From: Abditibacterium sp.
Lineage (GTDB): Bacteria; Armatimonadota; Abditibacteriia; Abditibacteriales; Abditibacteriaceae
Length of the DNA stretch: 64,000 nt
Assembly: GCA_965199495.1 (NCBI GenBank)
Contig: CBDASK010000003.1
Span: forward strand, 3,200,001-3,264,000
Direction of reading: 5' to 3'
Shown here piece after piece: positions 56,516 through 59,500 of this stretch (its first letter is position 1; each line of letters begins with the position of its first letter). Under the pieces are notes generated by a model. It did not search any database. It was not told the DNA's origin and saw nothing but the letters and a program-made list of their open reading frames with translations. The translations under genes and the position numbers were made by a program.

Positions 56516-59500
56516 TTACGCGCTCGCCAACTGCCGCAGCACGTATTGCAAGATGCCGCCGTGCAGATAATAATCGACTTCAATCGGCGTATCAATGCGC
56601 ACGCGGACGGGCACATCTTCGCTGTTGCCATCAGCGCGATGAATCGTTAATGTCGCTTGCATTTGCGGCGATAATTCTTCGATGCCGGTGATGTCGAATG
56701 TTTCCGTTCCGTCCAAACCTAAAGTTTGGCCGCTTGTGCCTTCGAGGAATTGCAGCGGCAACACGCCCATGCCAACCAAATTGGAGCGATGAATCCTTTC
56801 GTAGGAAGCAGCCACGACGGCTTTGACGCCCAGCAAACTGGTGCCTTTGGCCGCCCAATCGCGCGAACTGCCGGTGCCATATTCCTGACCGGCGATAATC
56901 ACGAGCGGCATGCCCGCTGCCAGATATTTCTCCGAAGCATCGAAAATCGCCATCTGCTCGCCGTCGGGCTGGTGAATCGTCACGCCGCCTTCGACGCCGG
57001 GCACCATCAGGTTTTTGATGCGCACGTTGGCGAAAGTGCCGCGCGTCATCACGCGGTCGTTGCCGCGTCGCGAGCCATACGAGTTGAAGTCCACGATGTC
57101 CACGCCATTTTCCTGCAAATAACGTCCGGCGGGCGAACTCGGTTTAATCGCACCGGCGGGCGAAATGTGATCGGTCGTGACGGAATCACCGAAAATTCCC
57201 AACGGGCGCGCGCCGATAATATCAGAACTTGTGCCCGCGTTCATGCCGAAATCGGTGAAAAACGGCGGCTCCTGAATGTAGGTCGAACTCTCGTCCCACG
57301 CGTAAACTTCGCCGGTCGGCGCCTCAACTTCATTCCACAACGGACTCACGTTCTCGAAGCCAGAATAGTTGCGGCTGAACGAATCGGCATCGAACGCGCC
57401 GCCCAAAACGTCGGCGATTTCGGCGCCGCTCGGCCAAATATCGCGCAAATAAACGTCGTGACCATCTTTCCCCTGACCAATCGGCTCGGTTTCGGGCTGC
57501 CAATCCACGCGGCCCGCGAGCGCAAACGCGACAACGAGCGGCGGCGACATCAAGAAGTTCGCTTTTACGGCTTGATGCACACGCGCCTCAAAGTTGCGAT
57601 TGCCGCTCAAAACCGACGCGACGACCAAATCGAATTCGTTGATCGCTTCTTCGATGTTCGGGTCGAGCGGGCCAGAGTTGCCGATGCAATTATGAACCGC
57701 CACGCCGCCCGCGACAAACGAATGGTATTCGTCAACCGTGAGGTCGAAAACCGCGCGCAGACCGGCTTCGCGCCGGTCAATCACGCCCAGCGCGAACGCC
57801 GGAACTTCGAGCGATTCTTTGCTCACGCAATAACGTTTAGCGGTATTTTGCCCGCTCGCTTCGAGTGGCGCGAACCAATCGCGCACGCCCAACTGCTCGA
57901 AGAGTTCGACGGGCGACGGAAAGCCGCACGCGTCGCGGTGCAGCGGCTGGAATGCGCGCGCGCCTTGTTGTGGCAAACGAGTAAATCGGTCGTGCCCGTG
58001 CAAAAGCGAATAATGCGGAAAAACGGCGCTTTCGCGTTCGAGCAGTTGCGTTTGCGCCTGAGCGCGCGCCGTTGCAAACGAAAGTTCAGGCGAATGCGCG
58101 TGAATGGTTTCCAGCGCGTTCGCCATTTTCAATCGTTGCGCGCCGATATTTTTCACCGTACGCCAGTAAACCGCCGCCGCGCTCGCGCACAGCGTTTTGT
58201 TGATGCAATAGCGATAACCGACGTTTTCGATAAACGACAATCCGTCGGCTAATTGCAAGCGAACTTCGGTGCGCGCCTCGCCGCTTTGCGCCGCCGCATA
58301 CGACGTGGCTGCACATCGCGTCGGATAAGCGCGAATTGTCGCGCCCGCCGTGTTGACGCCGCAACGTTCCAGCAAGCGCAGCATCTGCGCGAAAACTTCG
58401 CGTTGCGTCTCGACGTGGCTGCTAAGCGCGCTCTGCGAAAACGCCGGATGCGTCAAAGTCGCGTTGCTCTCGCGCGCGCTGAGACGATGCAGCGCGGGCG
58501 CGTGGCCATCAGCGCCCCAGGCGCCACCCAAGAACTCGCGCACAATGGCGACTGGACACGCGTCGTCCAACACAAACGCGGGCAAAGTCGCGCTTTGCTC
58601 GATGCGTTTGCCAACGCGCACGCCTTCTAATTTTGCGATGTTCGCCGTCAAATCGGCGGGCAACACAATGCTCCATTTACGCTCGTCGTAGGCGTTGGCG
58701 ACGGGCCGTTTGGCCGTGAGCAATGCAATGTCGTTCAACACCATTTCGCGGTCGAGCTTTTGCCCGACATTGACGCGACCCTGACCCAATTCGCTAATCG
58801 AACCGTCGTGCAATAGATGACCAATGAGACGCGCCATCGCCAATGCTTGCGCGCGCTGCGTTTCCATATTGAAACGCAACTCGCCGATTTGCAAAACGTA
58901 GTCGGCTTCATCGGCGCCGATTTCATCGAGCGGCGCTTCCAATCCGACAATCGCGCGGTCTTTGCCGATCTGCAACGCGTCGGCGCGCACCCAGCGCCCG
59001 TCTTCGCACAGAATTTGGTGATCGGGCGTGCAAACCAATTCGCGCCCGTCCTGCAAAATCAGCGAAACGCAAGGCCGCACGCCGTTGAACATCGCCGCGC
59101 TCTGAGCAGCCACGCCGAGCTTGCCCTGCGCCGGAGCCAAAACTCGCGCGCCGCCTTTTTCATCGAACGATTCGATGGCGCGGCTCAAACCGTCGGCGCC
59201 CAAGACCGGCGTGCCCGCCGCGATGCAGGTCGTGCATCCGTAGCCGACGGTGTAAAAACCCAAATCATCCAATGATTTCTGCAAGCCGGTTTTTTCCAGA
59301 TAATCCGAAACCACGCGCGAACCGGGCGCGAGCGAAGTTTTTACCGTCGGCCCGACTTCGAGGCCGTATTCTAACGCTTTTTTGGCGACCAAACCGGCGG
59401 CAATCATCACGCTGGGATTTGACGTATTTGTGCAACTGGTAATCGCCGCGATAACTACGTCGCCGCTCCGCAACGTCGCCGGACGAACCGGATATTCGGC

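Follow-up and report, generated by a model that had tools for sequence, protein, structure and literature searches.

An intein at a likely iron-sulphur ligand of aconitase A in Abditibacterium, with relatives among giant-virus and eukaryote-type inteins

We analysed a 64,000-nucleotide stretch of an Abditibacterium sp. genome (assembly GCA_965199495.1, contig CBDASK010000003.1, positions 3,200,001 to 3,264,000), here called the window, and found that its gene for aconitase A, acnA, carries an intein of 513 aa. The element belongs to class 1, is full-length and retains an intact nuclease domain; it is probably an actively homing selfish element, inserted between GCTT and CIGN of AcnA. Inteins of this kind are known; the host, the reach and the kinship of this one are unusual.

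The acnA precursor and its predicted spliced product

The precursor gene and its exteins have the following features.

56516..60919, minus strand: acnA precursor open reading frame (ORF; aconitase A with intein), 1467 aa, from translation and AcnA models
59228..60919, minus strand: N-extein, aa 1-564, ending in GYGCTT and containing Cys496 and Cys562
59432..59434, minus strand: Cys496, likely first Fe-S ligand by alignment to IRP1
59234..59236, minus strand: Cys562, or Cys(-3), likely second Fe-S ligand, present also in empty alleles
57686..57688, minus strand: Cys+1, which becomes Cys565 on splicing; predicted nucleophile of splicing and likely third Fe-S ligand
56516..57688, minus strand: C-extein, 390 aa, beginning CIGNSGPL, with the Aconitase_C swivel domain (PF00694, 141.9 bits)

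The exteins matched the AcnA models NF009520 (1344 bits, cut-off 905) and TIGR01341 (1292 bits, cut-off 945), and the AcnD model stayed below its cut-off on the same sequence. Their domain order and three cluster cysteines are those of the AcnA/IRP1 subfamily. Removing the insert in silico restored GCTT+CIGNSG, in agreement with empty alleles and IRP1, and gave a 954-aa AcnA with exactly three cysteines (496, 562 and 565). C562 and C565 aligned to the cysteines of GYGCMTC in human IRP1 (2b3x), which we take to be the cluster ligands C503 and C506; Cys496 is presumably the equivalent of IRP1 C437. On this alignment Cys+1 is likely the third [4Fe-4S] ligand, as the original prediction, made from the sequence alone, had proposed. 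We also looked for a second, intein-free aconitase in the host genome (95% complete), a check suggested with that prediction. There was no AcnB and the sole other PF00330 gene was LeuC-like, so acnA is the only aconitase found there.

The insertion is not an obvious assembly artefact, because both junctions lie within one mismatch-free contig of sequencing run X1 (window 57488-59432) and the same junctions recur in 120/120 top homologues. X1 may be the source sample, and none of its contigs, among the matches listed, joined the exteins by skipping precisely the intein.

The insert is a class 1 intein with a nuclease domain

The intein itself is divided as follows.

57689..59227, minus strand: class 1 intein, 513 aa (precursor aa 565-1077), Cys1 to His512-Asn513, between GYGCTT and CIGNSGPL
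58928..59227, minus strand: N-terminal Hint region, intein aa 1 to about 100, with block A Cys1 and block B T67-P-D-H70
58214..58855, minus strand: two-motif LAGLIDADG homing endonuclease domain, intein aa 125-338, with predicted catalytic D141 and D240
57824..58204, minus strand: accessory region, intein aa about 342-468, helical by secondary structure, likely DNA binding
57689..57817, minus strand: C-terminal Hint region, blocks F and G, with D495, H512 and N513

The original prediction had placed an intein in AcnA, and this identity is borne out by matches of the insert to the Pfam model Intein_splicing (PF14890; 36.3 bits, cut-off 35.8) and to TIGR01443 (25.4, cut-off 15.6), as well as by its clean in-frame removal. 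The 513-aa length, the C(-3)-T-T-C1 geometry and the 954-aa product all agreed with the translation. The predicted span of 57689..59236 was right at 57689; its other end took in the C-T-T codons of the N-extein, and the intein ends at 59227.

The class 1 residue set is complete (C1, T67, H70, D495, H512, N513 and C+1). C1, T67, H70, D495 and N513 were invariant in 64/64 loci and in 115/115 proteins including the window copy, these being the 120 top homologues less five lost to the matching pattern. H512 and D141 were each present in 62/64 loci and D240 in 64/64. An AlphaFold model of the intein without its exteins, built on an 80-row alignment, had a pLDDT of 93.5 and a pTM of 0.93. In this model the Hint fold superposed on NpuDnaB (4o1r) with Z 21.4 and root-mean-square deviation (rmsd) 1.8 over 136 aligned residues, and aa 125-338 on I-DmoI with Z 14.9 and rmsd 2.4 over 158. 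The Pfam LAGLIDADG models gave no match to the AcnA precursor at E 0.01. Together, sequence and predicted structure confirmed that the class 1 intein is full-length and that its LAGLIDADG nuclease domain is intact; splicing and cutting are predicted activities.

In the mechanism that we propose, Cys1 would form a thioester aided by T67, H70 and D495. Cys+1 would then attack the thioester, Asn513 would cyclise in a step involving H512, and the exteins would be joined into the normal 954-aa AcnA. Because Cys+1 is both nucleophile and ligand, [4Fe-4S] loading would occur only after splicing. The excised intein would cut intein-free acnA near the insertion site, and repair would then insert a copy of the element. 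Because the motif is conserved, the element could cross phyla and domains, with only precise loss tolerated. The available part of PMC4760082 describes persistence as favoured at conserved essential sites, since imprecise loss kills the protein.

Distribution of the aconitase allele

A search with the intein-region protein gave 809 matches among 8000 scored, and all 120 listed of the 809 carry an aconitase domain and the same junctions. At least 137 GTDB species genomes encode a relative of the intein, a lower bound from two search patterns. The suggestion that such an intein host is uncommon was not supported: the allele is common in public data. The best 80 of the 137 were examined and comprised 69 complete inteins of 482-544 aa, 5 cut by contig ends, 4 missed by the pattern and 2 with stops. 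The bacterial titles among these 80 were Abditibacterium, Acidobacteriota, Chloroflexota, Gammaproteobacteria, Planctomycetota, Methylomirabilota, Eisenbacteria and Omnitrophota; there was one Nitrososphaerales archaeon, and all titled carriers were metagenome-assembled genomes (MAGs). The distribution of the site, which the original prediction had proposed to map, thus covers eight bacterial phyla and three archaeal genomes. Automated JGI names for some records already read 'aconitase A/intein/homing endonuclease'. Where titles exist, the aconitase allele was found only in prokaryotic records.

Within these groups the allele is widespread but patchy. In the host phylum, 2/401 genomes carry the intein and 201/401 have an empty GCTTCIGN site. 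Among 12 other genomes of the genus, 1 was full, 9 were empty and 2 lacked the site in their assembly; empty sister alleles reached 95% extein identity. In the archaeal family, a matching AcnA was present in 12/13 genomes, the 11 besides the query being 71-84% identical to it. Three of these genomes have the intein and five that were checked are empty. With this identity to family members, the AcnA of the archaeal carriers is native archaeal.

We also scanned metagenomes with the N-terminal junction alone, a search blind to the nuclease, and at least 120 stretches matched. The 80 examined comprised 55 complete inteins (494-522 aa), 22 cut and 3 frameshifted, and no mini-intein was found among them.

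Two minor features of the carriers were observed. Stops or frameshifts occur in the intein or C-extein of L096, L088, L103, L186, L188 and L208, reflecting sequencing error or decay. Position -1 is Ser instead of Thr in 6/120 intein-bearing proteins, compared with 1/204 empty sites of the host phylum; this is possibly an extein adjustment to splicing, in a comparison of kin sequences that are not independent.

Intein and extein evolution

We compared intein and extein evolution over 64 loci, with one duplicate and loci with short exteins excluded. Intein identity exceeded extein identity in 1378/1581 cross-group pairs; between Acidobacteriota and Chloroflexota, for example, the inteins were 70% and the exteins 55% identical. 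In trees built with quick and FastTree methods, the Planctomycetota inteins grouped with those of four Acidobacteriota, Omnitrophota and one Chloroflexota (support 98), whereas their exteins grouped with Gammaproteobacteria (98). In the extein tree the window copy was sister to an empty allele (L003), within a genus-level group that contains the carrier L033 (Abditibacterium title), itself sister to another empty allele (L011). The only archaeal carrier placed in the tree, L047, fell among Chloroflexota inteins with weak support. In the pair L097/L105, dS was 0.63 for the intein versus 1.51 for the extein.

The nuclease is under purifying selection. By the Nei-Gojobori method over 17 non-overlapping pairs, dN/dS was 0.13 for the nuclease, 0.10-0.125 for Hint, 0.13 for the helical region and 0.10 for the exteins. 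In the established intein model a selected nuclease implies repeated homing (PMC4760082, available part). The allele has the pattern expected of a homing intein: patchy, laterally spread, and with empty sites in relatives. No relics of the acnA tail were found in the host genome.

Kinship with giant-virus and eukaryote-type inteins

Outside aconitase, the intein is closest to those of amoebal giant viruses and eukaryote-type proteins rather than to those of bacteria or phages. When 1.84 billion representatives were searched with HMMER without filtering, 1098 matched, and the host counts refer to the best 150 of these: 10 AcnA, 16 intein-only fragments, 13 without host assignment and 111 other hosts. 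The last group comprised RPB2 (65), PolB (20), RNR (6), XRN (5), C962R-type primase (2), IleRS (2) and single hosts of eukaryote type, such as myosin, PHD, SET, MYST and NOG1. Such a range of unrelated hosts is as expected of non-allelic jumps. Among 20 relatives whose hosts were looked up, one had a viral or eukaryotic name; the others were typed by host protein. The RPB2 intein of Cedratvirus lena was 36% identical across the whole 513 aa (244 bits).

The structure search agreed with this. The top eight BFVD rows came from Cedratvirus, Pandoravirus, Yasminevirus, Pithovirus, Hyperionvirus and Marseillevirus, with TMq of 0.65-0.88, and phage or unnamed rows had 0.22-0.45. For the whole model, TMq was 0.88 for Cedratvirus RPB2, 0.81 for Pandoravirus RNA polymerase, 0.81 for Yasminevirus ThrRS, 0.79 for Pandoravirus RNR and 0.73 for Pithovirus LCPAC304. 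A hidden Markov model (HMM) built from AcnA inteins only scored giant-virus and eukaryote-type relatives at up to 370 bits, and the highest-scoring other inteins of 401 bacterial genomes, of RtcB type as judged from flanking sequence, at 38-49 bits. A tblastn search against 50,697 phages and 72,556 plasmids found no match. For a viral carrier of the acnA allele, an IMG/VR scan gave two weak Hint-level matches only, and a search with the sister intein P0143 gave none. The P0143 search, examined also for a bridge form, reached aconitases at 32-36% only.

The sampled AcnA inteins formed one clade (100), beside inteins of myosin and unassigned hosts (93 and 99), and one invasion of acnA is therefore likely. 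In both trees they were nested within the giant-virus and eukaryote-type lineage at these supports, with an unstable outgroup. The approximately unbiased (AU) test, run on 32/60 rows, did not reject a tree with the eukaryote and virus rows as a single clade (p 0.34), so the kinship is compatible with either direction of transfer. We lean slightly towards passage of the lineage from a virus or eukaryote into prokaryotes.

Several further relatives were seen. One cluster member (P0284, in the cluster of P0146), labelled Nitrosarchaeum in a MAG, is an RPB2 with multiple inteins that scored 477 bits against eukaryotic Pol II versus 416 against the archaeal enzyme; it is possibly a mis-binned giant-virus contig. 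An RtcB of unassigned origin carries a more distant full-length relative. The same lineage also occurs, often at cysteines, in eukaryote-type PHD, WD40, GCN5, MYST, RING, SET, NOG1, myosin, carbamoyl-phosphate synthase and IleRS proteins (P0214, P0216, P0220, P0223, P0228, P0239, P0243, P0264, P0217 and P0211), whose owners may be intein-rich protists beyond Anaeramoeba.

Selfish element or redox switch

Several observations weigh against a laterally homing element of this kinship. The AU test does not reject eukaryote and virus inteins as one clade. The intein clusters strongly by host phylum (11 changes, minimum 9), indicating that the spread was in large part within lineages and long ago. 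For several pairs dS is close to saturation, and no co-conversion gradient or tract was visible against the empty alleles L003 and L004. In addition, C74, C434 and C467 of the intein are conserved and largely specific to the AcnA allele, which leaves room for a redox role.

Such a role had been suggested by the original prediction. The intein would be a domesticated redox or iron switch, in which a Cys(-3)-Cys1 disulfide, or an oxidised Cys1 or Cys+1, keeps the AcnA precursor inactive under oxidative, nitrosative or iron stress; splicing on recovery would free AcnA, and the host would retain the intein for that use. The residues of a redox trap, Cys at -3 of the N-extein and Cys1, are indeed present, and C(-3)-x-x-C1 occurs in 120/120 top homologues. 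The two precedents named by the prediction are also found in the literature: the same geometry blocks splicing of the Pyrococcus abyssi MoaA intein (PMC10663303 and PMC3922620, available parts), and the SufB intein is sensitive to reactive oxygen and nitrogen species (PMC6195587, available part). Together with the three allele-specific cysteines and the absence of another aconitase found in the host, these points favour a switch. However, Cys(-3) is obligatory for aconitase and stands also in empty alleles, with G-C-T-T-C in the 201/401 intein-free sites of the phylum; since the enzyme needs it anyway, it gives no information on adaptation. In the other hosts of the lineage, Cys(-3) was absent in 60/60 examined, and C53, C66, C224 and C341 are common to viral and eukaryote-type kin. 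A second intein at an Fe-S cysteine in the host genome, described below, indicates that the same geometry recurs at CxxC sites. The signs of retention by the host would be fixation, nuclease decay and an intein-specific Cys(-3); we found instead that about 1% of genomes in the phylum carry the intein, that empty sisters share 95% extein identity, that the nuclease is intact with no mini-intein seen, and that the cysteine is inherent to the site. We therefore consider the switch unlikely. Oxidation may well make splicing slower, as a simple chemical consequence of where the intein sits. A broader scenario, in which a giant-virus or protist intein jumped once into a prokaryotic aconitase, swept eight phyla and archaea, and is now a redox gate on entry to the tricarboxylic acid (TCA) cycle in some hosts, also seems to us a long shot. 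There the landing of the intein inside the cluster's CxxC would let a Cys(-3)-Cys1 disulfide keep aconitase in its unspliced form until the cluster could be loaded.

Another explanation is an ancient vertical relic: the intein would have invaded an ancestral acnA, and almost every lineage would since have lost it, with lateral homing playing little part. The grouping of inteins largely by host phylum or class fits this, as do the similar intein and extein dS values of several close pairs. It is contradicted by intein sequences that are better conserved than the enzyme both between phyla and between domains, by the conflicting placement of the Planctomycetota inteins and exteins, by the lower intein dS of L097/L105 and by the selected nuclease with the homing that it implies (PMC4760082, available part), and we regard it as very unlikely. 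An assembly error, or a non-splicing insert in a pseudogene, might be argued from the MAG origin of every titled carrier and from the few frameshifted loci, and is practically negligible given the open frame, the intact catalytic residues, the mismatch-free contig across both junctions, well over a hundred carrier sequences, the purifying selection and the status of acnA as sole aconitase found.

Comparison with known inteins and significance

The AcnA intein shares C1, T-x-x-H, D...D, K344, D495 and H-N with the giant-virus inteins, and its helical accessory region is part of the span common to them. They differ in host proteins and sites, in lacking Cys(-3) (0/60), and in the helical region, which is just 13-24% identical. 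PI-SceI, PI-PfuI and TliVMA (class 1, dodecapeptide nuclease with an I-DmoI-type domain) likewise combine Hint with a two-motif LAGLIDADG domain (Foldseek E 3.8e-9 to 7qsu; Z 14.6-17). They are 13-20% identical, with a different domain packing (rmsd 12-15 Å over the whole model) and a different host, and the AcnA intein has an extra C-terminal helical region. The P. abyssi MoaA intein also interrupts an Fe-S enzyme and combines Cys1 with a cysteine at -3 (available parts of PMC10663303 and PMC3922620); its disulfide has been demonstrated, whereas that of AcnA is hypothetical, and aconitase is no radical-SAM enzyme. Like AcnA, the mycobacterial SufB intein has an Fe-S-linked host and cysteine chemistry open to reactive oxygen and nitrogen species (PMC6195587, available part). 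Its host is a cluster-assembly scaffold and not a TCA enzyme, and the likeness noted here is one of chemistry. Anaeramoeba and other eukaryotic inteins (PMC10710043) resemble the AcnA lineage in spreading between non-homologous genes; there the transfer is into eukaryotes, whereas the AcnA allele is in bacteria and archaea.

We found no description of an aconitase intein in the literature searched, which was screened by titles and the openings of abstracts, with InBase and most subscription literature outside that search. The string 'aconit' was absent from PMC4760082 (text and two supplements, one file not being searched), PMC10710043 (text, two supplements), PMC5784728 (text, four supplements) and PMC7765530 (text). 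Inteins and aconitase are both mentioned in PMC9732441, where they are unrelated. Metabolic intein hosts are precedented by fungal glutamate synthase (PMC5784728, available part). Earlier surveys would be expected to miss the allele, since every titled carrier is an uncultured MAG. It extends the range of intein hosts to an enzyme of the TCA cycle, the insertion lying at a cluster-binding cysteine. It also makes it possible to trace how an intein takes over a new gene and passes between domains, its nearest kin being giant-virus and eukaryote-type inteins. Whether such an intein is a selfish element or a sensor could be tested cleanly here, given full and empty alleles in close relatives, a natural CxxC and an easily assayed enzyme. 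The predicted target of the nuclease is a motif conserved across AcnA/IRP1 enzymes.

Other inteins of the host genome and neighbouring features

The host genome is intein-rich. Outside the window, at about 3722009-3724104 of the same assembly's contig C3 (locus L262, 293-2388), a radical-SAM gene of the spore-photoproduct-lyase (SPL) family (TIGR03886) is broken into two ORFs by an apparent split intein; the insertion point is the third Cys of the C-x3-C-x2-C motif, and Cys(-3) is present here too. On the opposite strand, an HNH endonuclease ORF (675-1526) separates the halves, a layout that we take to resemble the 'fractured gene' arrangement. SplB is a listed bacterial intein host with 48 inteins (PMC4760082, available part), and the L262 intein, placed before that third cysteine, is like the SplB-type inteins. 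Further intein matches on C3 lie at 4708432 (+), 3579549 (+), 4275943 (-), 4092556 (+) and 1532246 (+). Judged from N-terminal sequence, their ORFs resemble DnaX, DnaE, a DNA cytosine methylase, GyrB and a ribonucleotide reductase with two inteins.

One further feature adjoins the gene.

56466..56503, minus strand: 38-bp inverted repeat immediately 3' of the acnA stop, likely terminator, from a blastn self-match

A consensus promoter and terminator scan, which performed at chance level, missed this repeat. The neighbours of acnA are an ORF without Pfam match (55474-56442, minus strand) and a DUF1963 ORF (60971-61720, minus strand). By blastn neither matched the two empty-allele relatives, and the acnA flanks differ within the genus. 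About 0.9 kb upstream of acnA, a 355-aa ORF (61832-62899, minus strand) presumably resembles an IS701-type DDE transposase. Elsewhere in the window, judged from sequence, ORFs at 47908-51489 resemble NikR and a CbiM/Q/O-type transporter for nickel or cobalt; a metK-like ORF comes next, at 51727-52914.

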